Assembly (NCBI GenBank): GCA_029856145.1 | Contig: JAHQWK010000008.1 | Coordinates: 32,001-96,000, forward strand | Reading direction: 5' to 3' | DNA: 64,000 nucleotides | Source of the DNA: Promethearchaeia archaeon | GTDB taxonomy: Archaea > Asgardarchaeota > Lokiarchaeia > Sigyniarchaeales > SOKP01 | Part shown: piece after piece, positions 12,001 to 27,418 of the stretch | How the letters are laid out: every line of letters starts with the position of its first letter | Position numbering within the stretch: the stretch's first letter is position 1 | The notes under the pieces: generated by a model | What the model was told of the DNA's origin: nothing | Seen by the model: only the letters and a program-made list of their open reading frames with translations | The model's database searches: none | Made by a program: the position numbers and the translations under genes

Positions 12001-15000
12001 TACCAACTTCCTGATGCCGATCTTGGACAAAACTATGAACCTCTTACTTTGCATCTACGGGTTCATGAAGCAAGCCCAATTCCAAATGGCGAGGCTACAA
12101 ACATCGAATCCCTTACAAAAGTTTATACCAGTTCTGAATTAGAACCACTTCCAGTAAATATTCTAAAGGGAGATTACACATATTATGCCGCTATTCAATT
12201 CTATACCCCTTCGGGAACGTTAGTCGAGACGCTCTATAAAGCAATTGAACCTGCGTATAATGATGGTATTGTAGAGATTGACAATGAGACTGTATATACT
12301 ATTTTAGATAAGCTCGGTCCGGGAATTTCCACCCTTAAAATCCAAATATTAGAATCAGAATCATATAAAGCCTCACCTGTTATTATCATCCCTATCGAAA
12401 TTCAACCGTCAAATTGGATTAAATTTGGGCAAAAGAACTCCCAAATTGATTTAATCAATCCGTTTGTATCAGCATGGGGTGTTGCCTATAACGGCGCTGA
12501 CGAGATGCCTTTTGAATCGTGCTATCCACACTTGATCGGTAGTATGTGGGTTGAACCATTCTTCAATGCTACAGGTGGAGATGAGTCAATTCAAGATTAT
12601 ATTGATATTAATTTAGATTGTACTATCTATAATGATGATGGCACCACCAGTACCTTCCCATTACAAAGTAATATCATGCTACGTCCGGGTAATTGGGACG
12701 GTATTTTAACCTTCGATATCGGTCTAGGTCCTGAATCCGCTTTTCTGATGGGACTTCAATGCGATCTGAACTTATCATTTAGTATAGATTTCAATAGCGA
12801 CAAAATTTTTGAAGATCAGAGGGATGTGTCAATTTACCTATTAGATCTACGGTTAGAAGCCTATCCATCAAGCAGTACACCGATCACCACATGGTCAATC
12901 TATGATGATGGCTTTAGTGATACAACCATTAAAGTAAAGGAATTGGATACGGTAAGCACAAATACTGGCACATTAGACTTAGGAGGAACTCAAAGTGGGG
13001 TAGTGTATGGACAAGAAGTAGCATTCTTATTTGATAATAGCACTTTAGATTATGCTTTAAACGCCGAAAGTGAGCTGTTAAACCTACTAGCTCTTGACGG
13101 AATTGAAGTGATGAAAGTTGCCGGAATTAAAGATGGAGATGAATATAGTTTTATTAAAGACACAGATTATTCAATCCCATATGCTTCTTCTGGAATTCTA
13201 GCTAATGAATCTGCTATTAAATTCTTAGGAAACGATGTACCTGATGAAGGAACAGAATTTTCCATAACCTATAAGCTGAAATTTGATTTCGATACCAATA
13301 AGTATGGAGTTATTACATTAGGTTATACAAGTAATGAGAATGTAAGCTCCATTGAACTTCAATTACATGAAGACTTCTTGCCAACCAGTAATAGTTCCTA
13401 TTCACCATTATTCATTCAATTTACCGATAGATTTACAGGTACAGGCTCTCAGACCGAGTTTACAGTTAATTATGGGTTAAGCGGAGTATCTTCGTGGAGT
13501 AGTGATTATTTTGTTATTTACAACGAGCAAGAATTAATTGATAATTATGGCTCATTTACAAAAACAGTTTCTTCAGGAAGACCAAAATTAACCTTTTCCA
13601 CTGCTCCCCCAAATCAAGCAAAAGTAAATATTACCTATGGAATAAAATCACAATACAACTTATCATATGGATTCCAGAAAGTTGACAAACCATATAGTTC
13701 TTCTGTGAGGTTGATTCAAAATGATGATTATTCTCCAAGTATAAAAGATGAGGCAAATAATGAGTTAGCTACCTACTCACTTTCTGATCCCTCAATGTAT
13801 ATTTCTCTTGATGATTCTGCTGAAAAGACCCTTTTAAAACTGTTAAATATTCCATTGTTATATGATCCAGAAATTAATATGACTTTTGCTTTTGATGGCG
13901 TTCTTTTAGATTTAATTGATAGCTTTGACACTGATTTTAATAACCTTACTATCCAATTTAAATATATCACCAATGATGGATATTATGAATTTTATTCTGA
14001 TCCAATGGTTATTCCACTTGATTATTCAGAAATTTCTCCTGATATTGTAGACAATAGTTATGTTATTTATTATAATAAAGACCTTCAAGCCATCTATGAT
14101 ATGGTGGGTGCCAGCAGTTTTGATATTGAAATTATTTTAAGTCAAGTCGGAAGTAGCGATAATTATATTCCTTATATTTTATTAGAAGAGTTCGAGTACA
14201 TTTCCAATACCCATATTGTAGAAAATTTTGGAAGTATGCCCCTAGATAAATACGGGAATATGGACACAAAAGCAATTGTAAACAGCCCACATTACTATCA
14301 AACATTTAGCCGACCGTTTATCGATTCTGTGTATGGAAGTTCTCCATTTAACTTAATTGATGGAAGCCAAGTGACAGTTGGACTTCAGAACTTACCTAAC
14401 TGCACATTAATTTCAATGGATTCTGATGGAGAGACCTATAACTTCAACTATTTAGGCGACTCCTCAACTCTTACGGTAAATAATACCAATTTCTATATGA
14501 TTCCTAATGTTGCCATGTATATTGATACTTATGGAATCGAAGAAACATTATACCAAGATGGGTATCTTGATTTATATTATGGTTCGGGAACAGAGATTGA
14601 CGGAGAAGAGCGTTATACCGCAAATATTTTAATGGATTATGAAAGTTCTGCAATTGAGGATTACCGATCTTCGATTTCCAATAAGGTTCCTACTTCATGG
14701 GAAGATACTTATAATTTTACTAATCAATTTATAACTACAGACATCATAACTGTACAAGGACGGGTATTTTACCACCAAGTATTTGATTTAGATACTGATA
14801 CAAACAGCTCCTCTTATATTAATGACATATTTCCAAATTATCCAAATACAATCTATTTCGGTTTGCAATTACCTGATAATTTCGATGTAGCTCAAATAAA
14901 GAAAGTTGGCGAGCCATATGAGTACGCATTATCGGTTCATGGATTCCCAACTGGAAAATACCAAGATAAGTATTGTAGACTTCCAGAAACATATAGCGGA

Positions 15001-18000
15001 CCACTCCCCGAAACCGAGTATGTGCTTACATCTTCTGATTACGCATTAGAGTTTTATGAGAACGGGACTGCATATGTTCTTTTCTTCAAACCTGCAAATG
15101 AATTAAGCTCTTATACCGATGATGAAAATAGAATTATGATTGATTATTGGATAAATCACGAATTTTTGAAGAATTCAGATTACTCCATCCATGAAGATCC
15201 TAACGATCCATTTACCTCTCAGATTGACTGGGACTTTGCCTTTACCAGTTTAGATACTTACCACTTGCATCCTGATTTTGACAATGATGCCTTCTTTACT
15301 GTAGAATATTCTGCTTTAGAATGGGAGATATTTGATAGCCAATATATTCATAATGGTACCGATGATTTTACCTTCCAACCACGCGAATATTATAATGTTT
15401 CTGTATTATATACAGGAGGCACAAGTGATCTCTTTAGTGTTCAATATATCGTCCCAGAAGGACAGTATCATGATGATGAAGTACTACTTTCCTATCTTTA
15501 CGCGCTTGCTCAGAAAGGCGATGATGAAGAAACAATGGAAGTATTCTGTGTACCTAATACGGAGACTGTCAATAGCATTGAACAGAATGCTGCAGATTCT
15601 TATAACTATACTATTTATTTCAGCACAATTGAGACATACATTAAAGATACTTATGGTCAAGATTACGAGCTTGTTGACAATTCATATGTATATGTAGCAG
15701 CAAAATATTTTACTACTCAATTAAGATATTCATTGAGCCATACACCATTTAATTATGAATATTTAAGTGCCGGGAACAATCCTTACCATATTGCCCTTTA
15801 TATTGATGATACATTTATTGCTTACTCTTACGAATCCACATTTGATGATTATGTAGAAAAAATTGAGGATGAGTATATTTATTTCCACAATCGATCCTCA
15901 GGTGAAGATGGTTATATTGCTCCATTGAGCAAAATTCACCTTGAATATAAATTTAAGCTTCAACCAGGACTTCTTGATAGGAAAAATTTCCTAATTGTCA
16001 CCTATCCATGGACCAATCAATTTAATACCATAATGGACTCCATTCCTGCATATCGCGAGGAGTATCGTAAACTGAGTGGTGGATCTATCATAAGTCCATT
16101 CGAATACAGTCTTTCTATCGATAACAAGTACAGTATGTACCTAACCTACCGCTTAAACCAGAGGGATTATTATGAAGAGAAATTTGAGATAGCCTCTGAA
16201 CATTACAAGAGCTCTGTGAACGGATACGTTTATGAATTCATGACTCAAGAACTTGATAATTATGTTGATGTAATTGAAGCCAATGGAGAAGAAGCGTTAA
16301 GTGTATATTATTTCGACGGATTCAGTAAAATGAGGTTCTTAGATTCCACTCATTATGAAATTAACTTAGCCCAACGTGAGATCGTGATTAAGAATGATGG
16401 CAATCCACTTGCTTCACCTAATGGCCTCAGTGAATTTTATGTGTCCTTTATCCCAGATGGTCCTGATAGAACGTTTAGTAGTTATAAATTTTCCTATGAG
16501 AAATCCTCTAATATGGCAGATACATTACAAATGCCTTATTGGGACGTTCTCGAAGTAGAAGGTGTAGATGTAGTTCCTAACTTAGATGCGTTTTATTTCA
16601 TGAGCGAAAATGAATCTTCCATCAATAACATTGTATGTTATGCTTCCCAAATTGCCATATATCTTTCAGATAATACAGAAAAGCTAGAATTTAATATAGA
16701 TGGGGCGCTAACGGGATTTGATGAAGATATAATTAATGATATCCATACAGGCGAATTTCTTGCTCTATATATTGATACGAATATTAAGAATATTGAGAGT
16801 TTAGACTATCTTACAATAGAACTTTATGATAGTTCAGATTCATTAATCTCTGGTTTTACTCAAATGATCACCAGAGAAGAACTTGAGCTTTATGATCATA
16901 ATATAAGAATCGAATTGCCAACCAGTACAAATACATTAAAGAAAATACAATTTATCCCAACCTTTAGATCGGACGATGAGTACAGTTCAAATAATAATAT
17001 TGGTATTGCAAGATACCAAACTTTACAATGGGATTCCGAATTGGTATCGATTATGGAAGATGGTCAGAAATATATGCATGTTGAGTTGGAACATGATCTT
17101 AAGACCAATAATTCACAGTTAGCATACATCTATAATGATAAATTAGAGTATCTTACTTTCCCAGAAAATGTGTCGATATCATATACGCTTGAAAATTATA
17201 CTTCTACCATAAGTAAATATATATTACATATTCCAGTCAAATATGTCCATCCTACCACGAATGAAACCGAAGGATTTAGAGAGGAACAGACCTTAGTCCT
17301 ACGCTATAATTCTCCTGTTGATAGTGGAATTGCCATGGGTATTGGAAACATGTATTTTGAAGCGAAAGGATATAATTATGCGGCTCACCCAGATCTTCCA
17401 AAAGCAGAGTTTATGTTAGTAACTGCAAATGATTCTTCTGTATATTCAGAATTTTTAGATGATTATTATTATCAAAATTCGCTTCAATTAACTCCGTTTG
17501 ATACTGAATATAACAATAGATATAAATCTGTAAAAATCGACCTAAATTTGACTTCTTTATATGATTCTACCGGTAAAAATATATTAAACTTTACTCATCT
17601 GATCTTTTCAGTTCCCAATCCTACCTATGAACTTACCATTTCCGAAGTAGTCATCTTAGAAGAGACTCTAGACGCTTCTGAAGAATATGGAAGTATTGAT
17701 AGTAGGCTATGGCAATATACTGAAGCAGAAAGTTTTATTGCAAGCGCTGCCCCAGAGAACGATGAATATCAGTTAACTTTAGAAAATACTCCAATATTCT
17801 ATCCAAGTTTAGAATGGTTAGATTACCTTACCATTTATGATGAAGAAGGTAATTACTATACTGCGGGAATTACTGGAAATGATCATCAACTTCATTTTGA
17901 CTCAGCTACCAGTAAGTTTACTTGGAACCCCTCATTCAATCAATTCCCTGAATATTTTGGTATGGAATTTGAAGAACCTTTGATTGTGAATCCAAACATT

Positions 18001-21000
18001 ACCCTTTATTTCGAATATGCGACCAACACTTCATGGGCTCAACCAATTCTTCTTGAAGTGGAGAACATTGATCTTAGTTCTATTCGAGTGATTTATGATT
18101 ATAATTACTTACTGAAGCCAGAATTTTATGAATGGTACTCTTCGCTCTACAACATGGATCATTCCTATGAGAATATTGCCTATTCTTTCAAAGAAGAATC
18201 TGAATATAGAGTTGTTCAATATTATTATGAAGGATTTACCGTATATACCAGCTCATCAGAATATACCCACACGTTCAATATTGGCGATCTTTCATTTGAA
18301 AATGATTTTGTCAATCTGAGCCTCTATAAAGTAGTTGGAATTACCCCCACCTTAGATTATGAAATTTTAACTGATAACACTAATTACACCATTACATTCA
18401 ACAAAGCCACCAAAGAATTGAAGATCACCGACCTCAACTCTGGAAATGGATTATTAGATACATTTGACCAGATTACTGTCATTCTCAACTACTCTTGTGC
18501 TCCAATCTCAAGTTATACTGAAATTTATTTACGAAAAGAGTTTAACCAGACTTATCTTTCTGATCCAAAGGATACCTTCTATAATTACGTTGATATTGAT
18601 TACAAATACACTACAACAACAGGTGTATTGTTCGCTGAAAACTCGGCTATTTTGACCAGCGATACTACATCATTTATTTCCATTGATTATAGCCGTAATG
18701 CTGATATGAGTGCAAGTAATAAGTTAATTGGCTATGGTTCTGAGCTTTATGATAATTTCGAGATTTATTACGATGATACGTCCATACTATATGTTGCAGA
18801 TGTTGATATGGACGGAGACCCCGACTATAAGCTCACGATTGATGTTGATGGGAACGGGGAACTAGATATTATAAAATATGGTATTGATGATCCTCAAGGT
18901 TCAGGAGAAATTTATTGGCATACTGTTATCCAAGATTTCGAAAATTATCAGGTTTCAGTAGAAAATGATCTTGGCGAAGAAAAAAGGACACAATGGTTTG
19001 ATATAGATGACAGAATTTTTGCCCGTTTCGATTTTAATGTAGGAAAATTGCTTTTATACGCTTTATGTTTACCATTGTTACCATTCTACATTACCAAAAT
19101 GATGTTACCCGATGTGGACTATTGGGCGCAGAAATCCGTTCAAAACGAAGTGAGGAAAGAAGAGCATGTTTATGTATCTTACTATAGTATAAAGGTAGAT
19201 AATGATCGAGACGGTTTACCTGATACTCAAGTTGATTATGAATCCACCGATATCGATATTTACTATGAAATTATGGAGTATCGGGAGACTATTTTAGCAG
19301 CAAAAACTCAGAATATCTTCACAATATTAGGTGAATATGTTGCAAGAAGTATTTCTTCATTGTTTGATGGACCAAGAAATGACATTGTATTTAATAAGTA
19401 TCTCACAAAAGATCATCTGGAGTCTGGAAATTTTAGTTCTTGTCATTGGTACGTAAGGGCAAATGCTCCAGTATTAACTTCTACCTATCGCAAGTTTACT
19501 GAGAATGTCACCACTACATATATTGATAGTTTTAGCAAATCGACATTAACTGTAATCGATTTTGATGATGAAGGAGAGATTGAAGAGCAAAGAACATACA
19601 CTGATGATTTTGAAAATTTTGAAGTTGGACTAGACGAGTTTTTCTCCGATTTAGTTGAAGAACACTCTATAACAGATATTAATACAGGACAAGAATCTGA
19701 AATAAGTTTTGATCCTGATTTACCATTTACCCATTTTGAAAATCTTACATGGGATACACAGACATGGGGACCTGATGGAGTTCCTGTAAAGTATGACTCC
19801 TTATATGTCGAGGGAGATGGGTATAATTATACTTCAAACGCTTTCGAGAAGACAATCATCCTTAGAATTCCAAATAGATATTCATTATATGAGGATTACG
19901 GGGTAACTTCACGATACAAGACAAGGAATAGCGGATGGGCTGAATTTACAGCAACAGGGATGCTTATTAGACCCCTTGATGGTAAGGTATATTATACTTC
20001 TGATGCAGAAGCATTTGCTGAAGGAACAGCTAAGACCGACGGCTTTTATTTCTATGTAGATAGCGACTCAAATGGATTCTATGAGACAGTCTATATCTTA
20101 AGCGATACATATCTAAGAACTGACGCATCTGGGCTATTACAGTTTAACGTAATGGCAATAGGATATAACTATGACGGTTACCATGATCTCGTTCCGTACG
20201 AGAGATTAGGAAAGACAGCACTGCCAGTTTCTGACCTCGACAATTTAGGACATGAATCAACAAAATTTGGAACCGATTGGGTCTATAATTTTAATAACCT
20301 ACGTAATTGCAGACTCTTATGGGAAGAATTGACACCTTTAGAAGAATTAGGGTTAAAGCCAAAAGATCATATTTTTGAAATTTATAAACTTGTGGAACCA
20401 AGTGAACAGAATAGTAAATTCTCTTCATTATTCTACGATGTGAGGCACGAAACCTATTCAAATGCGTGGGAACAATATAGGAAACAATTAGTAGGAGATA
20501 TCATTGAGCAAGTGTTTATGTCCGTGACTGCAGGAATTCTTAGCGCATTTGTAGAATCTACTATATGTATAGCAACATTTGGCTTTGGAACAGCTCTAGC
20601 CAAGTTTTTAGGCGCACTTACATACTTTTTAACATACACTTTAATGACTAAGCTTTCCATCGATATCAAACTCCAAGCATCTCAAGCACGTGAGCGTTCT
20701 AACACCTTTTATGCAATTTCACAAGAGAATTATGAGCCTACCTCACTCAACCATAAAGCACCTGGTGATAGATATCTTCAAGATTCGATGGCGGCAGCTC
20801 TTATAGGACATCCCGGAGGATATTATACCACAATTAGTGGAGGTGAACCCGGAAATCAATATACCGCTCAAGCTTTAGTGAGTCCGCCAAATCTATACCG
20901 TGTGAGAAACGCATTTGCGGGATTTGGTGCTTTATTATGGGGAAATTTATGGAACATGGGAGAATCCGACCCTGATGTGTTTACAGCTCTTGATTTTGAT

Positions 21001-24000
21001 GATCGAAACTTAGACTATCTTCTGCATACCAGCGAGCTACCATCTTATAACCAAAAAGAACATTACACGTACGAAAACACTGTGAGATCTACCAACCTCT
21101 ATAATATTTATAAATTTACCACATTAGGATATCTCGAGAATGAAATAAAGGATGCTTCTAATAATCAGTTAAATACCATAAGACCTACATGTGTTGATGG
21201 ACAACCCCTTTATGAATTTGTAGACGGAGATCAATATGAACAAGTATTACCACAGCAAGTATTATTTAGACCAATTATTTTAAGTGAACGACGTTATTCT
21301 AAATTAGCACCAGTATCAGGCCATCTTACTGTTACTACTCAATGTAAGGATTATGGAAATACAAAAGGTGTAGATCCATACGAAATGACACCTTTGGAAG
21401 TTCAAGCAGGGTATAAAGCAAAGATCCCTCTCATGAATGATAGTTTTTACTATCCATTAATATCAGTTATTATTGATATCGTGAAGGAATCTGACTCTGA
21501 GACTGGACATTTCGCAAAGAATCTCATTATCAATAGCTCGTATTATAGGCTTGATTCTGGGAATTTATATTTCACTAAATCACTTGAGACAATCATTTCA
21601 GAAAAATATCCTGAATTTGAGACGGTATTAAGCCAAACATGGATAGAAGAGTTCCTTGATTGCGTAATTTATTACAATGTTCACATATATTTTGAAGTTT
21701 TTGTTCCCGATACTACAGAACAGACTCATCAATTAGCATTAGCCCAGACGACTTTCTACACAATCATGGATTATTTCAATCAGTATACTTATGCAGAGGT
21801 TTCGGCAAATATGATTTCAGAAATTGCATATACTGAGACACTAACCTTTTGGTCTACCTTAATCAGTGCCCCTCTTATCTTTTTAGGCTCTTGGGCTGTG
21901 AAAGGTTCCGATCAAATGATAGGTAAAGCGGGAATGGAATTAGTGAAAGCAGGCACTTCATCTATGCAACAACAAATCCGTAAAATGCTTATTAGACAAG
22001 TCATTGGTATAGCTCTAGCACCCCTTCAAGAAGTCCTTCAAGAGATCATCCAAGATGGCTTTATGGAGGCTGTAATTGAGAACGTGGTAGATATTTGGGG
22101 CTATTCAGATGATTTAGGATATTGGCTATCCTCGTTAGCCACTTCAGCGAGAGAAACGACAGGCGCATTAGGACGATTAGCCCTTGGTATTGATAACGAT
22201 ACGAAGTTAAACTTCATGTCTATTTTATCTTTAGCAAAAGCGAGATTAACTGGGGATACTGAATTAAGAACCAATGTTATGAACAATCTCCAGCAAGAAC
22301 AACAAGCTGACCTACAAAGACAAGCAGAAATGGGCATGTGGCAAAAACTCTGCAAATCAGGCTTTCTCAAAGGCTTTCTCATGCTCATCCCAAGCCTCTT
22401 TTTCGGCTCATTTAGCTTCATGTTCATAACCAGCTTTACGAATATGGTTGAAGGAGCGACTTCACTTGGACCACAGCTCTATAGCGAGTATAAGGCTAGA
22501 AGACAGGTGAATGAACATACTGAAGCTAAGACTGAGTTAAACTCCATGCTCAAAGATGACCCATCTATGTCTATGGACAATCTGTGGCTTAAAAACATGA
22601 GAAGACCTTCCAATCCCGATATAGAAGCTCTTAATAATCGATTTAGAGAACTTCAGCAAGATCCAAATGGTGATACAAAGACCGACTTAGAAGAATCTCC
22701 TATTGTAGATGTTTCCAGACTTACTAATCCCAACCCTAAGATTGATGAGTTAATACAACAATTCAAGCTTACAGACAAATTCCAAGAAATTCAAATAAAT
22801 AGTTGGATTTCAGAGCTCGGTCAAGACGCTCGTTTTGAGAGTAAGAAGGCAGAGCTAAAACGTGTAGCTGAGAATAAAAAGACAATTGACTTCGCCGGAC
22901 AAGTTGAGGCAATAAGAAAAATTATAAGGAATGCCCTAGAAGATTATCCGACACAATTAAGATATATGGATTATACAGGAGTCGTTCTCTATGACCCCAA
23001 GCATATAGGGTTCGGATTCAGATTAGGGCCAAATGCAAATCCAAAGATTTCTGGAATTTTACAATTCAGGGAAGATTTTCCTGAAACGCTGTCGACTGAG
23101 GATTACGCAAATGAGTTACAAAAGGCTTATGACGTTAAGACGCCTTTACAAGTTTGCTTATATAAGCAAGGAGAACTGATCTTAATGCCTAGAACCACTC
23201 AGTCTCATGCGGAATGGTTGAAGCAACACGGACATAATATCAAGACAGATAAAATTGTATTGATTCCAAAAAGCAAAGTAAGCAGTTTTAAGAATAAATA
23301 TCTTCCGACATACTCTAAGGGTGCTTGGGACTCTTCAAAGACCAGTCCTTACTTCGCAGAATTTAAATTGTTTATAGACGCAATAGAATCTACTTTAACA
23401 TATCATAGCGTAATTAATAAGCGGTCTGATATTAACACAATATTAAGGTTGAGTGAAGCCAATCCTAGTATCGACACATTAGATAAAGAAATATACCTCC
23501 TATCTAAGACGAATTTAGACGGTACTCCTAGTTCTAGGGTTAATTGGAATAAAGCAGAGGAGACACTTAACACATGGCTTGTCCGAATCCTTAATAACAT
23601 TGAATCAAGCTCAAGAATAGCTCCAAAAGATAAAGGTAGAGTGATACAGTCAATTAAAGCAATTTTTAATAACTATTATGAAATTTCAGGCTATAAATTT
23701 AAACATCCATTATATCGGGATGCAAAATTAACACTTTATCAGGTAGGTGAAGTATTGACAAGGATAGGAGCCATGACCACATTTTCAATTGAGAAATTAG
23801 ACGAATTACTCAAGACTGTGAATAAGCCAGGAGTTAGTAGTCTTTATAGGAACTTACAGAGGAATTCCGAAAGTAGACCTAGAACTACGACGGTTGAAGC
23901 ATTGCGCGATAACATTATTTTAGCAGCTACAAGTGCTGGCATTAGCCTTACCAAATCTCACGAGAAGCTCATCCAAGATATATTTAATGCTTATAGAGAT

Positions 24001-25458
24001 AAAGTTAATGACTTTAGATTAGCTAAAAATCAATTATCCGGTTATGATAGGACTTACCGACTGGAATTGATTCAAGATTTAATAGATAAATGTGGGCCCC
24101 TCCGACATGTATTAGCGATATCTATACGAGATTTTAACAAACTAGTGTTTAAAAAGGATCATAAATCCTTTACTGGAGGTTTCTTGAACCCAAGTAACGC
24201 TCGGGATCGCCCTATGCATAACACCATATTTGAGATTATCTACAATTCGGATGATTGGTCTACAAAGACCTTTAAGGATCTTGGAATATCTATGTCATAT
24301 AGTGAACTCAGGCAAATGAGAGCTGATATCAAGAATTTGGTGTTTGATTGGATTATTAAGGCTAAATTTCGACCTGCGCTCTTCAATACAAGACTTCTTC
24401 GAACTTCCAACTCTGTCGCTCCAGAGTTAGATCTTGTCTATTCTCTTTGGGTTGCTGCTAGGCGAAAGACTGGTAGCCCAAAGTGTGATTTCGAAGCAAT
24501 TTATAAATTACGATTGTTAGGTGATAGTCCAATTCAATATAATTTAAAGGAAGGCAGTGTATTTAGTGAAGATTCTTTGAAGCTGTTTAAGCTTACTATA
24601 CAGAAGTGGCTAAGGCGAGAAACCGACATTAGGAAACCAAGCCCAGACAGACGTAAGGTTGTTGCTTATGAAAAAGCGCTCAATAAAATCGGATTTTATG
24701 CACAAATCCGTAAGAAAGACCTCAGAGGCAGTCCAAAAGGAAGATCTCCTAGCACTCGAGGAGAATTTAATAAAGAACAAGCGAAGGTTTATAATGTTAT
24801 CCTCGGTTTGGGACGTCATTTAGGGTTCGATCCTGCTTTCTTTAGACCTGTTGAAGACCAAATGTTTGACATGAATGCTGGAGTTAAACAAAAATTGAAG
24901 GCATTAGGAAAGAAGCTTTACATATACGTCCGACATCATTTCAAGAACAATCCCGACCGTGCGTCGATCTCCATCATGGATCAGGTTATCACCCACTCTG
25001 GTACTCACTTTTACTGGGAAAATCTTATATCAGAAGATGAAGCACTCGTAGCAATCCAAGTGCTTGAAAATCTTGTAAAATATAACCGTAGGATTGATGC
25101 GACAGATATAAAAAATGAATTCAAGAAATTTGACAGGGAATATAGGTGGATTATGGCAAACTGGTTAAATGATCCAGATTTTGATGAAAATCTAAAGAAA
25201 TTTAACGATAGGAAAGATGATATTAAAGCTATGACGATTGACGAATTCATCTATACACATTATCGAAAGACGTATGATAAATTTATTAAAGTCTTACTGA
25301 AGACAGAGCATATTGGAATTCTAGCCATCATTCAAGCTATGCATCCGAATGTTGATGTTTCAGGATTGGTGAGTCTCGGGAAAAATAGCAATTACATAGG
25401 ACCTTACTCGACAGTATTTGCTGAAATCTTGAAGATGTATAAGTATCCGGTTTACTGA
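1..25458 (+). CDS. Giant secreted/surface protein (at least 8485 aa, 5' end outside window), polymorphic-toxin-like architecture
   Basis: Frame 1 has no stop from base 1 (AFKSTASHTISSSSFKVCQE...) into the listed 913..25458 ORF, so TTG913 is not the true start. D/E/Y/S/T/N-rich body with many NxS/T sequons, H-type-lectin-like repeat at the left edge, DxDxDG motifs, several hydrophobic helices, K/R-rich C-terminal ~870 aa. Confidence 0.9.
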   Translation, partial: AFKSTASHTISSSSFKVCQETAETGISTSTETIGWIAIESGKTGTFQGVKYETGRGNDGNKDGFDDDGHTFTFSQSFSSAPIIITKQNSLNAGNGAWARSYGTLSSSSHITCSEEDQVGDSERSHNDETFGFIAFEESLYSIGSTDDRFRPIWGTQNVESINTVSYGQTFPSSIDNDGNLVIDNSLKQGANFLVNTKDNSSVNNFFSDSYKFLTFDTSGYDASKYQLKNIIINITNFYTSASDFPSYQDSQSFALKNFYEEFLNDLHEFKIRVITQKENAQDEDALAYLCIGDFNTYTQTTTNYLNYEEFESNAIQGYHVSDKLEFTEDGIQLSGMSGFNTKDAPETQKFRDNFQTSTWNLLGASEPDIIFTESIEQDAMTRSLHPNSNYNSQEFDLSSFKISNPFTYCLWQDTIIKGTEIASYPDDTRYDDITYQIYGANLYGSNYEIQVQDNYDFEGAKTWDLEYLMFTDINVDSIKLYSDSGTIDETINGNTLSGTARVEDLKELYISTTDNLDHEISVDLLIYTTVVEEYETYIETQSFNYNYLTSGNNDMRELIVTRPSSLVYQGPYIYVYSTGGFDETIVTWNSRPATYDLLSQAEGLDDSTPITFPINLGKITENNYFKIDATDGGIDYYNDPPVRFTIGKKHQEGSLMYMQTNITETLKLKSAVYPSSTIITKNDQIVIDCKAATNSEVILTLFSEGEFVRNFTVIEQGNQDYSSQILVFTTNETIQFDQLQFTSTLGKEQYFVVHSIDVIAGASVIDAKLWTYDFTGRNLYSSNTVEETSSNFALFQDNLYYNLTSGWINDQYEIQIEFEFILPESEMTDVDKIDINLVGTGTGVSLGGAKFKYLNLATGPYEKIEYTNTGDTYTFSIDNVQKIFDSSSATYQVHFLITLGSSDIFTVHIDSVNAITYKEWSAQHDLYRASFVFERIHSNNNASVTIAVSDEISLTIEDSKLYINGYDNIMSFYYNCTEQQWHAYLNEETTDLLVNATESEPTPKLRIESNYNSTSYGIIVKSIESQYYKRVRDSADFEEYKSVLASYRAVQGHGEVIELDSRDANITPENTFAQVCADVDIIYSFHDDMQEENIFSYELIPTFSSSSFDNLTSVVYDETGFIFSSVSDLTIYNVTSVDGDVTKTSGDLSDLNEKDDYNWVKFDSAWNTERYDNSPEFYKTPSGASGSPSEPDDWDIRDEGTCREYTVISGTSSVKAEDIFSFNGLPSWAGSAKDKEIEVKIWWDDSIGATLKYCKLYVMDWGDPYDTDDTYVEKASFYEAQWDTRTISLASGNINRWLDYNTKLYQTKIKIETYVEASLLPALDVNIEYLYLDFKKDDKDTSAVEFEFDDLINGENDFYVYFRGKTDGLDFTSKLLIDGVEKLSFNNTFEEYAGFVSDVDSIKVWIADDGEIYHPSLDNREVILDYLVVKWVNEDINFTVYNKDSILLNSSLSHTQASSTPIDRGFVEYNQYFGKNTLHFTLKNSIQTPIFGRNNSLIYADLDLTDLDLDFTLFPDESYEDFPTEHQNVEGKNSTQYNTDILKDYNEYSNSRFKNSAIDDIQIPLMTPIEMDFGDINLDDFSDIDLEIVLDYGLALQNRAKNSEWSWRFRLIYYNYTSGAWEDFKGLLRAKNMGYERSVWDPSKNFAMYLQNPEVNDFIPILDDNDIQLKNPILIDSITNDTLSDGIFKLAFVSYILPGNLSIMGEIYQGECFSYEREDPLVPISISQTVNMLECILISESREIIYPESSVVVNLELNENLKANLSSISNLGEIVAVKGRYIDNKEILYEYPIHSYWVTAEDELAFNSPMKYLFTNVTIEYVPQLALNYNATDGYWYLPNNVFIASRNFSQPFFVSSLCVNNTFYGTYIHPDVDVGYTVGFLGNRTYVKFAENIHPDSTVKGAVHFAKVGYKYLYKFSLKDELLYSYNILNEDTPLIDGIFHIELNAGFKDVIYSELSQVACEDYQLFINITRVDTYTGETRSIGYSSIELDSSLLGYHLYNLDVSLDEFTFVSNGRDLLKEAITRGTHYDLQVTLESSISNCIVDGHLFKGMYAHELLIASFEIKTEESEMKFNGDQVQTPYIPIPQKSIILARLDTAMYQFSDLDYSFDFLIDAIRTEKYALYENIDYIFDSSQSTIILIGEYRDYSGYLFADITYKAFEWKEGSVSSLEPITLTFDNDYGRNISKFLEFSLQYNLIPGYELEKVDYTSGRLVLANEEKSSALMNIYLYNFNDNKWDKIEFVVYDDYTGTNTFSYVVDRNFITFEDYFNKTTGDEFEVKAVLAVEEVIGDYFVSQASFGITSINASIYYDTPDTEHTINPEIEFDVDLTEFFTGDSKYLEQIKVDLQFSGEIEFDSAFIFSQYALLEENYNFYIRNKYLDFEQFTLEDNTIILSREEINRLIFHDIENEKYYLRAKLEYDWTCILEMNLGSNSRLEIVSTLNLIKYDLSASYTSYETTRISAQEIDTPYDLCEIIAPDYIETDSGISVLESDNEIDIGIFGGFLRNANTRQRLMVRQQLYYTFNESTSGPQAILLDQEYTDAILRFLIPLGYLEQPYTYLINKTYFTFITDFEVIDVKLYRYNGVSDVFVANMTPHSTKVGIFEYTWDDVEGDTETTSGDTVELMFLLTDVFENTGSYRYNFTTDFNPPNPEISIGDGSESFEDCTADPTTSLTFTHTEEGLYTEYYRIIDNMLGSTTDWIKFNSTELLILDDLAILPENFTIEYNVIDAAGNENITSIYNYNYQYITFSREKSITLTDDTIDLNGFSNREISFTDTGQFNNSQNLDVYINGFRYGTAYLDSGSYRLSFGNENSKETLIAYSDSLLSDYIYSNINPLNHISWEVREDEYYAIVKHVLVDSDIVITNPLTYNITTEFELEHLYNRGFGLSDYMRIKQVYYINASDGSKIPLTLGPDFIVYEETGIVDFPEYSVVYNLYESISEVKDGIIYFEYDASPFADQLRLSNADGFFINFTMPSVYYEHTTIEKLVISLNDFAGNSFAKVYYDIDLRQYFLDNVKGQYEEDIFGLGKMMTIPLYIDLNEIAISNIDKQFDLKLLKSVSITVSDHERWPGSFIQNFENYSVMNLPYQRIGVKDIKLYNLISDTIEADEQGYVSASIMFRASDYYNLFAEAEFNIKKLDIEFTNTKAYAYNQEIDTSVDMEYSDFIELNYRWNNSLAQVLLNDIVYLPVSMINATSGEELGYSTANWITKFDYDSLSNYLTKYYYSKFEVPKTLGEIDISFSSPGTSLFNITFIDAPTIALNVTQESLSTDPIYLPETDYELEYGHTLLLEGAILDNDEYLVEDKVYNYKYQEALDGKTTHALDIVSPYGDPDFIDREEFAIYYVNDELKILPLFSTLNGRYFTNKTILDYNEDPTISYIDNSFVLNIYWRKNSTNFIHYDTNLLITHKVVNGKPISPISYSSLDSFGNDKQQNLMEIPFARYDMLTKNWVTQDTFTQQFRIDKVLLFEDVESSGTTIRGPSFEVGQNNITTGIIDIGDIYENKTDSEIFELVDEEEYSWLINTNGELVVSGLPYVSGDTFKISYYAYYPVAIPHSLNSPSSSIVYIKVINNSGYEFEFALNTDYKFSEDGYSVYFLDLYNSIIKSGNFSIFNTFEVKYTAPLTRKVDLSTNILLMLQDNLGNDIPIDVIPIDNLGFFEYEQVLREDSPLSIPLGGGKKLVHMLLSYLPLSVHNKSSGTSISISYSDPEFGNIYPYIESNSWAKPITILTIPDNVKLTMVEDPLDNIVFSQKYFEERDYVYNYNPMEALEEGEEYTKVMIDALVQQEYTFAFKLTTAEGKSINNSIVWAHIGLLPKSEKQFLNDRMVIEDLGISPYFEALGTQEITFIGPGESPNKMFGKPLLYETDGYNTNYSAYGPYYWLYSTTNENGEATFEVSFDQDYLTDFTDIFGSREGFDSVEDVVLYLRVFNSYFDWDEFEIDTPNQYLCSKDGMIYNGSTALNNYNFDKLALQDSTYVEGLIRLHKKDISVATNDYYSYQLPDADLGQNYEPLTLHLRVHEASPIPNGEATNIESLTKVYTSSELEPLPVNILKGDYTYYAAIQFYTPSGTLVETLYKAIEPAYNDGIVEIDNETVYTILDKLGPGISTLKIQILESESYKASPVIIIPIEIQPSNWIKFGQKNSQIDLINPFVSAWGVAYNGADEMPFESCYPHLIGSMWVEPFFNATGGDESIQDYIDINLDCTIYNDDGTTSTFPLQSNIMLRPGNWDGILTFDIGLGPESAFLMGLQCDLNLSFSIDFNSDKIFEDQRDVSIYLLDLRLEAYPSSSTPITTWSIYDDGFSDTTIKVKELDTVSTNTGTLDLGGTQSGVVYGQEVAFLFDNSTLDYALNAESELLNLLALDGIEVMKVAGIKDGDEYSFIKDTDYSIPYASSGILANESAIKFLGNDVPDEGTEFSITYKLKFDFDTNKYGVITLGYTSNENVSSIELQLHEDFLPTSNSSYSPLFIQFTDRFTGTGSQTEFTVNYGLSGVSSWSSDYFVIYNEQELIDNYGSFTKTVSSGRPKLTFSTAPPNQAKVNITYGIKSQYNLSYGFQKVDKPYSSSVRLIQNDDYSPSIKDEANNELATYSLSDPSMYISLDDSAEKTLLKLLNIPLLYDPEINMTFAFDGVLLDLIDSFDTDFNNLTIQFKYITNDGYYEFYSDPMVIPLDYSEISPDIVDNSYVIYYNKDLQAIYDMVGASSFDIEIILSQVGSSDNYIPYILLEEFEYISNTHIVENFGSMPLDKYGNMDTKAIVNSPHYYQTFSRPFIDSVYGSSPFNLIDGSQVTVGLQNLPNCTLISMDSDGETYNFNYLGDSSTLTVNNTNFYMIPNVAMYIDTYGIEETLYQDGYLDLYYGSGTEIDGEERYTANILMDYESSAIEDYRSSISNKVPTSWEDTYNFTNQFITTDIITVQGRVFYHQVFDLDTDTNSSSYINDIFPNYPNTIYFGLQLPDNFDVAQIKKVGEPYEYALSVHGFPTGKYQDKYCRLPETYSGPLPETEYVLTSSDYALEFYENGTAYVLFFKPANELSSYTDDENRIMIDYWINHEFLKNSDYSIHEDPNDPFTSQIDWDFAFTSLDTYHLHPDFDNDAFFTVEYSALEWEIFDSQYIHNGTDDFTFQPREYYNVSVLYTGGTSDLFSVQYIVPEGQYHDDEVLLSYLYALAQKGDDEETMEVFCVPNTETVNSIEQNAADSYNYTIYFSTIETYIKDTYGQDYELVDNSYVYVAAKYFTTQLRYSLSHTPFNYEYLSAGNNPYHIALYIDDTFIAYSYESTFDDYVEKIEDEYIYFHNRSSGEDGYIAPLSKIHLEYKFKLQPGLLDRKNFLIVTYPWTNQFNTIMDSIPAYREEYRKLSGGSIISPFEYSLSIDNKYSMYLTYRLNQRDYYEEKFEIASEHYKSSVNGYVYEFMTQELDNYVDVIEANGEEALSVYYFDGFSKMRFLDSTHYEINLAQREIVIKNDGNPLASPNGLSEFYVSFIPDGPDRTFSSYKFSYEKSSNMADTLQMPYWDVLEVEGVDVVPNLDAFYFMSENESSINNIVCYASQIAIYLSDNTEKLEFNIDGALTGFDEDIINDIHTGEFLALYIDTNIKNIESLDYLTIELYDSSDSLISGFTQMITREELELYDHNIRIELPTSTNTLKKIQFIPTFRSDDEYSSNNNIGIARYQTLQWDSELVSIMEDGQKYMHVELEHDLKTNNSQLAYIYNDKLEYLTFPENVSISYTLENYTSTISKYILHIPVKYVHPTTNETEGFREEQTLVLRYNSPVDSGIAMGIGNMYFEAKGYNYAAHPDLPKAEFMLVTANDSSVYSEFLDDYYYQNSLQLTPFDTEYNNRYKSVKIDLNLTSLYDSTGKNILNFTHLIFSVPNPTYELTISEVVILEETLDASEEYGSIDSRLWQYTEAESFIASAAPENDEYQLTLENTPIFYPSLEWLDYLTIYDEEGNYYTAGITGNDHQLHFDSATSKFTWNPSFNQFPEYFGMEFEEPLIVNPNITLYFEYATNTSWAQPILLEVENIDLSSIRVIYDYNYLLKPEFYEWYSSLYNMDHSYENIAYSFKEESEYRVVQYYYEGFTVYTSSSEYTHTFNIGDLSFENDFVNLSLYKVVGITPTLDYEILTDNTNYTITFNKATKELKITDLNSGNGLLDTFDQITVILNYSCAPISSYTEIYLRKEFNQTYLSDPKDTFYNYVDIDYKYTTTTGVLFAENSAILTSDTTSFISIDYSRNADMSASNKLIGYGSELYDNFEIYYDDTSILYVADVDMDGDPDYKLTIDVDGNGELDIIKYGIDDPQGSGEIYWHTVIQDFENYQVSVENDLGEEKRTQWFDIDDRIFARFDFNVGKLLLYALCLPLLPFYITKMMLPDVDYWAQKSVQNEVRKEEHVYVSYYSIKVDNDRDGLPDTQVDYESTDIDIYYEIMEYRETILAAKTQNIFTILGEYVARSISSLFDGPRNDIVFNKYLTKDHLESGNFSSCHWYVRANAPVLTSTYRKFTENVTTTYIDSFSKSTLTVIDFDDEGEIEEQRTYTDDFENFEVGLDEFFSDLVEEHSITDINTGQESEISFDPDLPFTHFENLTWDTQTWGPDGVPVKYDSLYVEGDGYNYTSNAFEKTIILRIPNRYSLYEDYGVTSRYKTRNSGWAEFTATGMLIRPLDGKVYYTSDAEAFAEGTAKTDGFYFYVDSDSNGFYETVYILSDTYLRTDASGLLQFNVMAIGYNYDGYHDLVPYERLGKTALPVSDLDNLGHESTKFGTDWVYNFNNLRNCRLLWEELTPLEELGLKPKDHIFEIYKLVEPSEQNSKFSSLFYDVRHETYSNAWEQYRKQLVGDIIEQVFMSVTAGILSAFVESTICIATFGFGTALAKFLGALTYFLTYTLMTKLSIDIKLQASQARERSNTFYAISQENYEPTSLNHKAPGDRYLQDSMAAALIGHPGGYYTTISGGEPGNQYTAQALVSPPNLYRVRNAFAGFGALLWGNLWNMGESDPDVFTALDFDDRNLDYLLHTSELPSYNQKEHYTYENTVRSTNLYNIYKFTTLGYLENEIKDASNNQLNTIRPTCVDGQPLYEFVDGDQYEQVLPQQVLFRPIILSERRYSKLAPVSGHLTVTTQCKDYGNTKGVDPYEMTPLEVQAGYKAKIPLMNDSFYYPLISVIIDIVKESDSETGHFAKNLIINSSYYRLDSGNLYFTKSLETIISEKYPEFETVLSQTWIEEFLDCVIYYNVHIYFEVFVPDTTEQTHQLALAQTTFYTIMDYFNQYTYAEVSANMISEIAYTETLTFWSTLISAPLIFLGSWAVKGSDQMIGKAGMELVKAGTSSMQQQIRKMLIRQVIGIALAPLQEVLQEIIQDGFMEAVIENVVDIWGYSDDLGYWLSSLATSARETTGALGRLALGIDNDTKLNFMSILSLAKARLTGDTELRTNVMNNLQQEQQADLQRQAEMGMWQKLCKSGFLKGFLMLIPSLFFGSFSFMFITSFTNMVEGATSLGPQLYSEYKARRQVNEHTEAKTELNSMLKDDPSMSMDNLWLKNMRRPSNPDIEALNNRFRELQQDPNGDTKTDLEESPIVDVSRLTNPNPKIDELIQQFKLTDKFQEIQINSWISELGQDARFESKKAELKRVAENKKTIDFAGQVEAIRKIIRNALEDYPTQLRYMDYTGVVLYDPKHIGFGFRLGPNANPKISGILQFREDFPETLSTEDYANELQKAYDVKTPLQVCLYKQGELILMPRTTQSHAEWLKQHGHNIKTDKIVLIPKSKVSSFKNKYLPTYSKGAWDSSKTSPYFAEFKLFIDAIESTLTYHSVINKRSDINTILRLSEANPSIDTLDKEIYLLSKTNLDGTPSSRVNWNKAEETLNTWLVRILNNIESSSRIAPKDKGRVIQSIKAIFNNYYEISGYKFKHPLYRDAKLTLYQVGEVLTRIGAMTTFSIEKLDELLKTVNKPGVSSLYRNLQRNSESRPRTTTVEALRDNIILAATSAGISLTKSHEKLIQDIFNAYRDKVNDFRLAKNQLSGYDRTYRLELIQDLIDKCGPLRHVLAISIRDFNKLVFKKDHKSFTGGFLNPSNARDRPMHNTIFEIIYNSDDWSTKTFKDLGISMSYSELRQMRADIKNLVFDWIIKAKFRPALFNTRLLRTSNSVAPELDLVYSLWVAARRKTGSPKCDFEAIYKLRLLGDSPIQYNLKEGSVFSEDSLKLFKLTIQKWLRRETDIRKPSPDRRKVVAYEKALNKIGFYAQIRKKDLRGSPKGRSPSTRGEFNKEQAKVYNVILGLGRHLGFDPAFFRPVEDQMFDMNAGVKQKLKALGKKLYIYVRHHFKNNPDRASISIMDQVITHSGTHFYWENLISEDEALVAIQVLENLVKYNRRIDATDIKNEFKKFDREYRWIMANWLNDPDFDENLKKFNDRKDDIKAMTIDEFIYTHYRKTYDKFIKVLLKTEHIGILAIIQAMHPNVDVSGLVSLGKNSNYIGPYSTVFAEILKMYKYPVY

Positions 25459-25509
25459 CCAAATCACTAATCCCAAACACCCCAAATATTTAAATAGCAA
25501 AAGAGATAT

Positions 25510-25956
25510 ATGATTCTTATGAGAGATAAACGAGCAATTATTATCAAGAGCCCGCGATTACAGAAAATTAGGAACAATTTAAGGCTTCTGTTGCTTAAAG
25601 CGGCAAGAACAGAACGAGAAAGATTATATAAAGAATGGAGGGGGTTTCTGGTTGGCTCAGAGGGTAAAAGGCACTCCATAAAAGAATTTTCTCCAGATAA
25701 ATTAGAACAGTTCAGAAATCTTCAAGAGCAAGAAGAAATCTTGAAAAGCATATCAGATAGATCTATTTGTAAATGTATTGCGTGCGGGAAAGCGGATCGG
25801 GACATGGTGTACAATAAGGCTTATGATGCGTGGTACTGCACAGATTGCTATGGGTTGGAGCGGTCGGTTGCTCAGAGGCGGACTAAAACGCGAGAGAGAG
25901 GATCGAAGTCATGCGAAGAGAAAGCCCTCGAGGAGCACTCCAAGACTTTTCTGTAG
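25510..25956 (+). CDS. Small basic Zn-finger protein (CxCxxC...CxxC)
   Basis: 148-aa ORF with CKCIACG and WYCTDCY motifs, 51 bp after the giant gene, followed by a T-tract. Confidence 0.75.
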   Translation: MILMRDKRAIIIKSPRLQKIRNNLRLLLLKAARTERERLYKEWRGFLVGSEGKRHSIKEFSPDKLEQFRNLQEQEEILKSISDRSICKCIACGKADRDMVYNKAYDAWYCTDCYGLERSVAQRRTKTRERGSKSCEEKALEEHSKTFL

Positions 25957-25970
25957 TTATCGCATGGTCT

Positions 25971-26007
25971 CTTTTTTGTTTTTCTTTTTTGCTTTTTGTC
26001 TTATTTT
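25971..26007 (+). terminator. Oligo-T archaeal-type terminator
   Basis: cttttttgtttttcttttttgctttttgtcttatttt just after the stop of 25510..25956. Confidence 0.55.
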
Positions 26008-26200
26008 CATGGATCTATAATTTTATAATCTATAATTATTTCTATTACTCCAAGAAAAATGCTGCGAAATTTTGCTTGTGTGGGTACTTGAATTTGATTT
26101 CTTTCTCCTATATAGATCTAAATCTTCTTAGGTCAAAGTTCACTATCTTGTGAAGTTGGGACCTCAATTTATTAATTTGATAATTTTTTTAGAACAACAA

Positions 26201-26272: not shown

Positions 26273-27418
26273 TCAGAAGCACCGGTGAATTACCTGTGGG
26301 CCCATCTCTTTATATTCTCTACGAGTAACCCACATTCTATGAAACGTCTTTAGTGAACTCAGAATTGAACCACCAATCCATACTGAGTACATACGCTCAG
26401 GTGGGGCAATTATTTTGACGTCTACACTCTCTGGGATTTGCTCTTTGATTTCTTTCGTTAATCTTTCCTTAATCCCGGGGAACATAGTGCTTCCGCCCGA
26501 GAGAACGATGTTGCTATATAGATCTCTTCGAAGATCGACGTCACATTCTGAAATGGCGCCTACAATCACATCATCTAAAGGCTCAAGTTCTTTTCCGATA
26601 ACAGAAGGGTTGAAGAAACACTCAGGTGCTAAGAATCGCTCTACACCGACGTTGATGGTCTCTCCGTCAGGGAGCATATAACTTTTCTCCATTCCAGCGA
26701 CCTTCTTACTCAGCATCATCTCTTTTTCAGGATCAATCGCCACATAGCACAGCTTCTCTTTTATATCTCTCACAATCTCTTTTTCTGCTGATGTTGTGAA
26801 AGAATATCCCTTTTGTCGAAGAAGTCTCTGTAAATAGGTTGTAATATCCCGACCAGCGAGATCGATTCTTTGAATAGCATGACTTAAGGCAAATCCCTCG
26901 AAAATTGGTACAACGTGGGATACACCATCACCAATATCTATAACACACCCAGTAGTACGACCAGAAGCATAAAGACTCAATACTGCTTGCATTGCTACGT
27001 AAAGAGCAGGTGTATTAAAAGTCTCAAACATAATTTCAGCCATTTTCTCACGGTTTGGGCGTGGGTTCAATGGCGCTTCTGTTAAAAGTACTGGATGTTC
27101 ACTTGGATCGATACGCAAGTCAGTATAAAACGTGTAATGCCAGATTTTCTCCATAGCAGTCCAGTCTTCAATGATACCATGTTCAACAGGGAACATTAAC
27201 TTTAAAACGCCTTTTAATTGCATAGCTTCCTCACCAATATAGTATTCCCGAGTATAGTGCTCAACATCAGTCATGATGCTTTCATACTTGGGATATCCAA
27301 TTAGTGTAGGGAAGACTGACCTTGGTTGATCCTCACCAGCAAATCCATTTTTGGAGATTCCGGTACCATTATCAACAACCAGGGCTTTTGCGTTTAAAAA
27401 GCTTTCTTCCTCTGCCAT
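26273..27418 (-). CDS. Actin (Lokiactin, eukaryote-like actin)
   Basis: Canonical actin motifs: [99 protein letters not shown]-terminal HRCF. Confidence 0.98.

Follow-up and report, generated by a model that had tools for sequence, protein, structure and literature searches.

A giant Lokiarchaeial membrane protein with a predicted HNH-fold tail and an adjacent zinc-ribbon gene: a candidate toxin-immunity locus

The locus and the giant protein

Of all known organisms, the Asgard archaea are the most closely related to eukaryotes, and they live in close physical contact with partner cells. To our knowledge, almost nothing has been learned about how they recognize, compete with, or harm one another. 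The present analysis concerns a 64,000-nucleotide stretch, hereafter the window, from a Promethearchaeia archaeon (GenBank assembly GCA_029856145.1, contig JAHQWK010000008.1, positions 32,001 to 96,000 of the forward strand). In this window, the 3′ end of a giant gene encodes a basic tail with a predicted HNH fold, and the gene is directly followed by a small zinc-ribbon gene, hereafter the partner gene. The locus is a concrete candidate for Asgard cell-cell recognition or competition, and the tail and partner gene are weighed below as a possible polymorphic toxin-immunity system.

The open frame of the giant gene spans the window from nucleotide 1 to the stop codon at 25456-25458, and its upstream continuation covers 12.7 kb in the genome (gene at G000:C7:19248-57458). 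The 3′ two-thirds contained in the window (1..25458, + strand) encode 8,485 residues, and the protein is 12,736 aa in full. Hydropathy and charge divide it into a basic N-terminus, approximately 14 transmembrane (TM) helices, an acidic ectodomain, a C-terminal membrane module, a linker, and the basic tail. The basic N-terminus is 204 residues long with 19.6% lysine plus arginine (K+R); a signal peptide was sought there and none was found. The N-terminal membrane region consists of approximately nine TM helices, a 516-residue basic soluble part, and approximately five further TM helices, and no Pfam match was obtained for residues 1-1210 of the full protein (L002:5248-8900, upstream of the window). 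The ectodomain comprises 9,388 residues with 5.6% K+R and a net charge of -10 per 100 aa. Pfam matches upstream of the window were Laminin_G_3, the immunoglobulin (Ig)-like Big_13, and a weak H_lectin, while no match was found across the 8,485 residues encoded in the window.

The membrane module before the tail holds four to six hydrophobic candidates by segment count. One of them, aa 6347-6368, has acidic segments with Ca-loop-like motifs on either side, and the last strongly hydrophobic, TM-like segment lies at 22372..22428 (+ strand; window aa 7458-7476, Kyte-Doolittle 1.91). How often the chain crosses the membrane ahead of the tail is ambiguous, so that the segment count is compatible with a tail either inside or outside the cell. 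Composition alone speaks to the side of the membrane, and it favors the cytoplasm. The charge per 100-aa block was 0 to -24 up to window aa 7400, and from aa 7601 (nt 22801) the blocks carried 0 to +13 with 14-24 K+R per 100 aa; as a whole segment, the tail has 16.3% K+R and a net charge of +4.7 per 100 aa. An earlier annotation of this DNA, made without database searches and referred to here as the sequence-only reading, had described a flip from acidic to K/R-rich sequence, and the block charges do change sign near nt 22,800. Its adhesin part also agrees with the lectin and Ig-like domains of the ectodomain, and its size of 8,500+ aa was an underestimate.

The HNH-fold tail

The tail comprises the last 729 residues of the giant protein and was divided into two parts. 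Part A (23269..24723, + strand; aa 7757-8241), which begins at a conserved PSPY motif, is predicted to be an all-helical scaffold of approximately 485 aa. Part B (24724..25455, + strand; aa 8242-8485), of approximately 245 aa, consists of the predicted HNH-fold domain and a C-terminal helical bundle, and it is the unit retained in orphan fragments. The beta-beta-alpha core of this domain (24925..25026, + strand) is formed by the strand YVRHH, a loop, the strand QVITH, and the helix SGTHFYWENL. The motif YVRHHFKNNPDRASISIMDQVITHSGTH occupies window aa 8309-8336 (nt 24925-25008), and the candidate catalytic or metal-binding residues in the core are H8312, H8313, D8327, H8332, and H8336.

A HMMER search of 1.84 billion representatives returned 100 relatives of the last 1,006 residues, mostly metagenome fragments with 22-71% identity, and the tail was modeled with AlphaFold2 from a 52-sequence alignment. 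The model of the last 729 aa had a mean predicted local distance difference test score (pLDDT) of 90.4 and consisted of helices, except for one strand-loop-strand-helix unit lying exactly on the motif. When the last 244 residues were modeled alone, the pLDDT was 92.6. Local values for the two strands (8309-8313 and 8328-8332) and the helix (8333-8342) were approximately 80-95.

The model of part B was then compared exhaustively with 48,161 PDB representatives using VIA-align. Only 60 chains reached Z ≥ 2, and approximately 22 of the top 31 were HNH nucleases. The best match was Cap5 (7rwk_B; Z 5.6, rmsd 2.7, 91 aa), with a second Cap5 chain (7rwm_A) at Z 4.8 and 4oge_A, which is among the Cap5, Cas9, and IscB HNH structures, at Z 4.2. 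The other HNH matches included the HNH domains of Cas9 and IscB as well as McrA, GVE2, ZRANB3, and T4 endonuclease VII. In a shape search of the ESM Atlas, HNH clusters occupied 8 of 10 rows, with template modeling scores ≤ 0.51. When the whole 729-aa tail was submitted to VIA-align, generic helix bundles alone were returned (Z ≤ 8.4), and no fold could be assigned to part A. Searches of PDB sequences and profiles gave no HNH match, with weak, non-significant rows such as a calcyphosin EF-hand (E 0.005) and SSO1986 (E 0.015).

The most conserved residues of the domain are those expected of a His-Me finger. Among 40 aligned homologues, H8312 and H8336 were each retained in 39, H8313 in 35, R8311 in 34, S8322 in 32, T8331 in 30, and D8327 in 28. 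Position 8332 is D in 25 of the 40, and it is H in this protein and its closest relative; the signature across homologues thus reads R-H-H..S..D..T-D/H-x3-H. These models and comparisons support an HNH (His-Me finger) nuclease fold in part B, which may be an active nuclease. The weight of the assignment comes from the convergence of two shape searches, since each score is modest in itself. The predicted HNH domain is a new sequence family, invisible to sequence annotation.

Parts of what the sequence-only reading had proposed for this region were retained. Its helical C-terminus corresponds to a segment modeled as nearly all helix, and its His-Me (HNH)-like motif lies on the predicted beta-beta-alpha unit, for which the shape searches returned HNH structures almost exclusively. 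The motif was placed at 24931-25009 in that reading, and its true start is two codons earlier. Of the structural check suggested for the C-terminus, the beta-beta-alpha unit was obtained in the model and a Foldseek match was not.

The zinc-ribbon partner gene and the predicted complex

The partner gene (25510..25956, + strand) encodes a 148-aa protein with CxxC motifs at residues 89-92 and 110-113, a candidate immunity protein or antitoxin. The starts of its homologues line up with its second ATG, at 25519. The protein is basic, with 34 K+R versus 22 D+E, and no signal peptide was found in it. A homologous CxxC..CxxC gene lay behind the tail on the same strand at approximately 20 of the 22 loci examined. 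The pair was found in three contexts, namely, at the end of a giant gene (this window, P0004, and P0042), behind a stand-alone paralogue, and beside a start-less tail stub. In the second context, soluble paralogues of 533-544 aa with their own partner gene occupy a syntenic chromosomal locus in three genomes (G017, G002, and G011).

The complex of the HNH domain and the partner protein was predicted with a median interface score (ipSAE) of 0.80, versus 0.00 for the best control. Of 80 solved complexes, 58 attained a mark of 0.80, as did 2 of 110 mismatched pairs; because custom alignments were used here, this calibration is only roughly valid. At least 45% of the contacts were common to the runs, and the pLDDT of the partner was at least 75. 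On the HNH chain, the predicted interface comprises residues 66-70 and 92-101, that is, strand 1 up to R8311 and the helix with H8336, flanking H8312 and H8313; on the partner side, both zinc knuckles are included. The prediction supports binding of the partner over the catalytic face of the HNH domain as the most likely arrangement. The predicted binding partner is itself a new zinc-ribbon family, invisible to sequence annotation.

Some further features of the two genes were recorded. The helices behind the HNH core (window ~25000-25200, aa 8331-8393) give the weak calcyphosin-like EF-hand profile match mentioned above. Conserved positions in these helices are D128, W147, F153, L157, and N161 (A2 numbering), and their surface lies partly in the predicted partner interface. 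In the case of transcription signals, TTTAAATA (25489..25496, + strand) precedes the first ATG of the partner gene by 21 nt and is a possible archaeal TATA box, which would give the partner gene its own promoter and would fit a leaderless transcript. A T-rich tract 3′ of the partner gene (25957..26010, + strand) is a likely terminator for both genes, and no comparable tract was found between the giant gene and the partner gene.

Exchange of the tail and partner gene relative to the body

The identities of body, tail, and partner were compared among this protein and the homologues P0042 and P0004. Over 1,680 aa of the body, this protein is 50.8% identical to P0042 and 32.7% identical to P0004. 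The order is reversed in the tail (729 aa), where the identities are 23.6% and 43.7%, respectively, and in the partner protein, where they are 33.9% and 52.7%. Moreover, further bodies that are 50-63% identical carry tails that are ≤ 24% identical. Identity begins to fall in the linker, and several BLAST alignments end at the conserved strand DKIVLIP, near aa 7757. This three-taxon comparison supports a history that is shared by the tail and the partner and is discordant with that of the body.

A similar picture was obtained from the neighboring actin gene, which lies at 26273-27418 (- strand; Pfam Actin, E 1.5e-132) and is convergent to the giant and partner genes. The actin gene of G011 is 98.4% identical to that of the window, and the adjacent partner gene is 57% identical. 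In G011 the giant body is missing, and its last 30 codons remain beside the partner gene.

Unrelated tips were considered for four homologues (P0013, P0014, P0050, and P0095) in which the BLAST alignment breaks at aa ~7757, and they were rejected by hhalign, which returned the same tail profile. The probabilities were 99.9% for P0013, 99.3% for P0095, and 92.6% for P0050, and P0014 was tied to the family through BLAST to P0095 and P0013 only. The exchanged units are therefore variants of one family and not unrelated toxins. A word-based homologue search for other warheads, made with part A of the tail, returned eight close homologues only.

The linker itself (22441..23268, + strand; aa 7481-7756, ~280 residues), in which homologue identity drops, ends in DKIVLIP. 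In the alignment with P0042, its counterpart is the final strand of a ThiS-like beta-grasp; residues 2072-2126 of P0042, just before the tail, match Pfam ThiS (E 1e-4, 23.2 bits, cutoff 22.5). The P0042 segment terminates in ...VAIMPHIGG and in this resembles beta-grasps of the ubiquitin type, which end in GG; a junction of this kind was seen in P0042 only. In the corresponding part of the window (23098-23271, aa ~7700-7757), the DKIVLIP strand is present, with no GG end and no Pfam match, and a language-model atlas search with the linker gave no usable match. Processing could take place at the beta-grasp junction, on the boundary of exchange. P0042 (L024:4001-12655) was called as 2,884 aa within an open frame of 2,990 aa, has unrelated genes 340 nt upstream, and aligns from window aa 5562 on. 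The N-terminal membrane region is missing from it, which would fit either a short form or truncation of the gene.

Relics, surplus partners, and distribution

Start-less tail stubs with intact partner genes were found in four genomes (G017, G003, G015, and G141). In the case of G017, the last 272 residues of the giant gene remain (63% identical) together with an intact partner gene (66%), and no giant body was found within 13 kb upstream of the relic. The stubs in G003, G015, and G141 begin at a common domain boundary (profile positions 457-488) and have no start codons. Some tail stubs have lost the His pair. In G013, an array (L019:8411-11542, G013:C35) holds six tandem partner genes or fragments, with one HNH stub among them; approximately 3 kb downstream of the array, another giant-gene homologue begins.

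The distribution was determined across 81 genomes of the family. The partner was present in 51 of them, the HNH domain in 26, and tail part A in 23, the last figure counting scaffold matches whatever end follows. In 27 of the 81 genomes, the partner was found without an HNH domain, and a single genome held up to 11 partner copies. The genome of the window itself has four partner genes and one HNH domain. Its three solitary partners (G000:C30:71146-71541, C4:22913-23221, and C22:1181-1441), one of which has an internal stop, have no tail or HNH domain beside them. A search of 160 genomes of the phylum from outside the family returned no instance of the HNH domain.

Interpretation of the locus

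The locus matches the syntax of polymorphic toxin-immunity systems in its nuclease fold, its adjacent and co-varying partner, cassette exchange, start-less orphans, and surplus partners. We consider it somewhat probable that the tail and the zinc-ribbon gene constitute such a system, in which the tail would be active, toxic, and delivered. The zinc-ribbon protein would cover the nuclease face and keep the HNH domain inactive, and the tail and zinc-ribbon gene are inherited, and exchanged between giant-protein bodies, as a cassette. Old cassettes would decay to start-less tail stubs, while the zinc-ribbon genes would stay intact and accumulate, and the giant lectin/Ig membrane protein would serve as a display or delivery vehicle. 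Nucleic-acid cleavage, toxicity, neutralization by the partner, and arrival in another cell are steps that we infer; for the downstream gene, its position and its co-variation with the tail are seen, binding is predicted, and neutralization would be its putative role.

The giant polymorphic toxin proposed by the sequence-only reading, for which contact-dependent delivery would be putative, is consistent with the predicted HNH fold, the exchange, the orphans, and the lectin and Ig-like domains, whereas the set of unrelated toxins and the signal peptide that such a protein would have were not found. The comparison of tips that it suggested revealed a tail and downstream gene discordant with the body, and no unrelated tips on the same body. 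The orphan tails and orphan partner genes that a toxin system would leave behind are present.

Several observations weigh against a toxin-immunity system. The structural scores are modest (Z ≤ 5.6), and Foldseek searches of the PDB with the whole tail and the HNH domain gave no row at E ≤ 0.001, all E-values being > 0.1. Pfam, NCBIfam, PADLOC, and PHROGs gave no match at E ≤ 0.1-1 for the tail, the HNH domain, or the stand-alone paralogue, and none of the curated HNH models (Pfam HNH, HNH_2-5, and Tox-HNH families) was matched by the tail. The same four collections gave no match for the partner, which matches no known immunity family. Five of the 40 homologues have E or Y in place of H8313. 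No releasing peptidase, VENN-type motif, pre-toxin domain, or secretion partner was found by Pfam or among the neighbors. Every tail examined belongs to one homologous family, so that the variety of unrelated toxin tips that is a hallmark of such systems is lacking. As judged by its predicted segments, the giant protein is polytopic and membrane-anchored at both ends, and the composition of the tail is cytoplasm-like (16.3% K+R, versus 19.6% in the cytoplasmic N-terminus and 5.6% in the ectodomain). The soluble 533-544-aa paralogues have a partner and no delivery part. The partner gene is absent at two loci (G193 and G003), one of which has a 560-aa leucine-rich repeat (LRR) protein in the partner position behind the giant gene (G193 L031:6219-7898, + strand). 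Fusions of the partner domain to LRR repeats exist as well: in G232, it makes up the N-terminal part of 488-aa proteins (L035:4840-6303, - strand; L036:5188-6651, + strand), the rest of which is LRR (LRR_14, E 3e-38). Because of the single tip family, the exchanged scaffold, the missing release device, the double anchoring, the cytoplasm-like tail, and the soluble forms, two other explanations, both judged improbable, are kept alive, namely, that the tail acts on the cell that makes it and that the module is not toxic.

In the former case, the giant protein would be a membrane-tethered effector whose tail lies in the cytoplasm of the producer with the zinc-ribbon protein as its antitoxin; the ectodomain would sense a virus, a foreign cell, or damage and free the tail to act on the cell's own DNA, in a logic of abortive infection or toxin-antitoxin systems. 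Such an arrangement is unlikely in our estimation, and it does draw on real features of the locus. The tail resembles the cytoplasmic segments of the protein in composition, soluble paralogues and minimal HNH-partner pairs exist without a delivery part, and the partner combines the lack of a signal peptide with a Cys4 zinc site typical of intracellular proteins. The closest structures are those of Cap5, a self-killing effector of the cyclic-oligonucleotide-based antiphage signaling system (CBASS), and the distribution is patchy and family-restricted, as for defense genes. However, the 27 of 81 partner-only genomes and the tandem partner arrays fit protection from the toxins of others better, PADLOC gave no match, and a lectin/Ig stalk of 9,400 aa would be odd as a sensor. 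The membrane passes before the tail are ambiguous, and a location outside the cell is compatible with them. A housekeeping or regulatory module without toxicity appears less likely again. Here, the HNH domain would bind DNA or metal or would act as a controlled processing nuclease, for example on DNA at the membrane during DNA exchange between cells, and the zinc ribbon would be a required subunit or specificity factor. The homology of the tail in all family members would fit this role, and the beta-beta-alpha unit with its four His could be a structural zinc site, the usual D at 8332 being H in this protein and its closest relative. The excess of basic residues in the partner is in line with it as well, as zinc ribbons often bind nucleic acid, and so is the occurrence of the partner family in other contexts (the LRR fusion and solitary copies). 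Three observations, however, would be surprising for a required subunit: the partner far outnumbers the presumed enzyme in both genomes and copies, it persists intact where the enzyme is reduced to a start-less stub, and it has been replaced (57%) beside a flanking gene that is 98% identical. The HNH domain is patchily present (26 of the 81 family genomes, 0 of 160 elsewhere in the phylum), which is at odds with a core function. Evidence against a non-toxic subunit comes from the genomes that have partners only and from partners that stay intact next to dead stubs.

It is very improbable that the HNH likeness is fortuitous, in which case the tail would simply be a helical domain on the cytoplasmic side of a giant adhesin, followed by an unrelated open reading frame. 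The missing sequence-profile match to any HNH family, the high Foldseek E-values, and Z scores under the usual noise ceiling for single matches would all be expected in that case. Against this stand the convergence of two independent shape searches on HNH families, the coincidence of the canonical positions with the most conserved residues of the domain, the retention of the co-varying downstream gene with the tail at approximately 20 loci, and a predicted complex that passes all controls.

Under the toxin-immunity reading, a bolder extension can be formulated, which we put forward tentatively and consider rather doubtful. In one family of Loki-type Asgard archaea, doubly anchored proteins of 11,000-12,700 residues would pass the HNH tail into neighboring cells for kin discrimination or competition. 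Transfer would follow a new route across archaeal envelopes, free of a secretion system; release at the beta-grasp would be possible, and a dedicated zinc-ribbon immunity protein would exist for each type of tail. Whether the tail is delivered or self-acting, the genomes with partners only are suggestive of an arms race that is widespread in the family. Few prokaryotic proteins are as large as the one that bears the predicted HNH tail, and the population-genomic behavior of the locus matches that of bacterial toxin-immunity weapons. Delivery of the tail would imply an unknown archaeal mechanism for carrying a protein of 700 residues from cell to cell, and action in the producer would make it a surface-coupled suicide or regulatory nuclease.

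Comparison with known systems

Giant Asgard proteins unrelated to this one have been described (PMC8813620). A search of the available literature returned such unrelated giants (the aloposon Otus/Ephialtes) and nothing on this tail, this partner, or this chassis.

In fold, the tail is closest to Cap5 and to the HNH domains of Cas9 and IscB, with which it shares a predicted beta-beta-alpha-metal core with flanking helices. Unlike in those proteins, there is no SAVED sensor, RuvC, or guide-RNA context here, and the identity is 6-10%; the common fold does not show a common function. The HNH DNases colicin E7 and E9 likewise have an H-H dyad ending strand 1, a polar residue before strand 2, and a helix with H-x3-H (H8332 and H8336 here). 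With their Im proteins, they also offer a parallel in which one homologous nuclease family has many specificities, each with its own small binding protein. No sequence relationship to the colicins was detected, however, nor are the delivery parts related. Instead of a four-helix Im protein, the locus has a Cys4 zinc ribbon as the partner, and most homologues have D rather than H at 8332.

The locus resembles CdiA/CdiI and Rhs C-terminal displacement (PMC3150448) in its giant stalk, its C-terminal candidate toxin region, and an adjacent cognate protein predicted to bind it, and it shares with CdiA/CdiI orphan C-terminal/immunity modules without translation starts (PMC3150448). In contrast to CdiA/CdiI, Pfam gave no match here to CdiB, a TPS domain, FHA or Rhs/YD repeats, or a VENN or PxxxxDPxGL boundary. 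The neighboring genes are actin and an Hdr/Flx operon, with no CdiB transporter among them, and the archaea concerned have no outer membrane. The orphans of G017 and G011 are scars of the loss of a whole giant gene, unlike arrays behind an intact gene.

The closest general framework is that of polymorphic toxin systems in the sense of Zhang, de Souza, Anantharaman, Iyer & Aravind 2012 (PMC3482391), which have been predicted computationally in archaea (PMC3482391, PMC6393860). The present system departs from them in having one homologous tip family instead of many unrelated toxin folds, and in exchanging a large unit of approximately 730 aa that includes the helical scaffold. It also has no signal peptide, known trafficking domain, releasing peptidase, or demarcation motif; the giant protein is polytopic at both ends, and its tip and partner match no known Tox or Imm family. 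In common with polymorphic toxins, the locus encodes a surface protein of very large size, in which a stalk of lectin and Ig-like domains is combined with a predicted nuclease fold at the C-terminus, and its gene is followed directly on the same strand by a small co-varying gene. The tip and this gene are exchanged apart from the body, start-less orphan tips occur with intact partners, and surplus partner genes are found both solitary and in tandem, as in polymorphic toxin systems.

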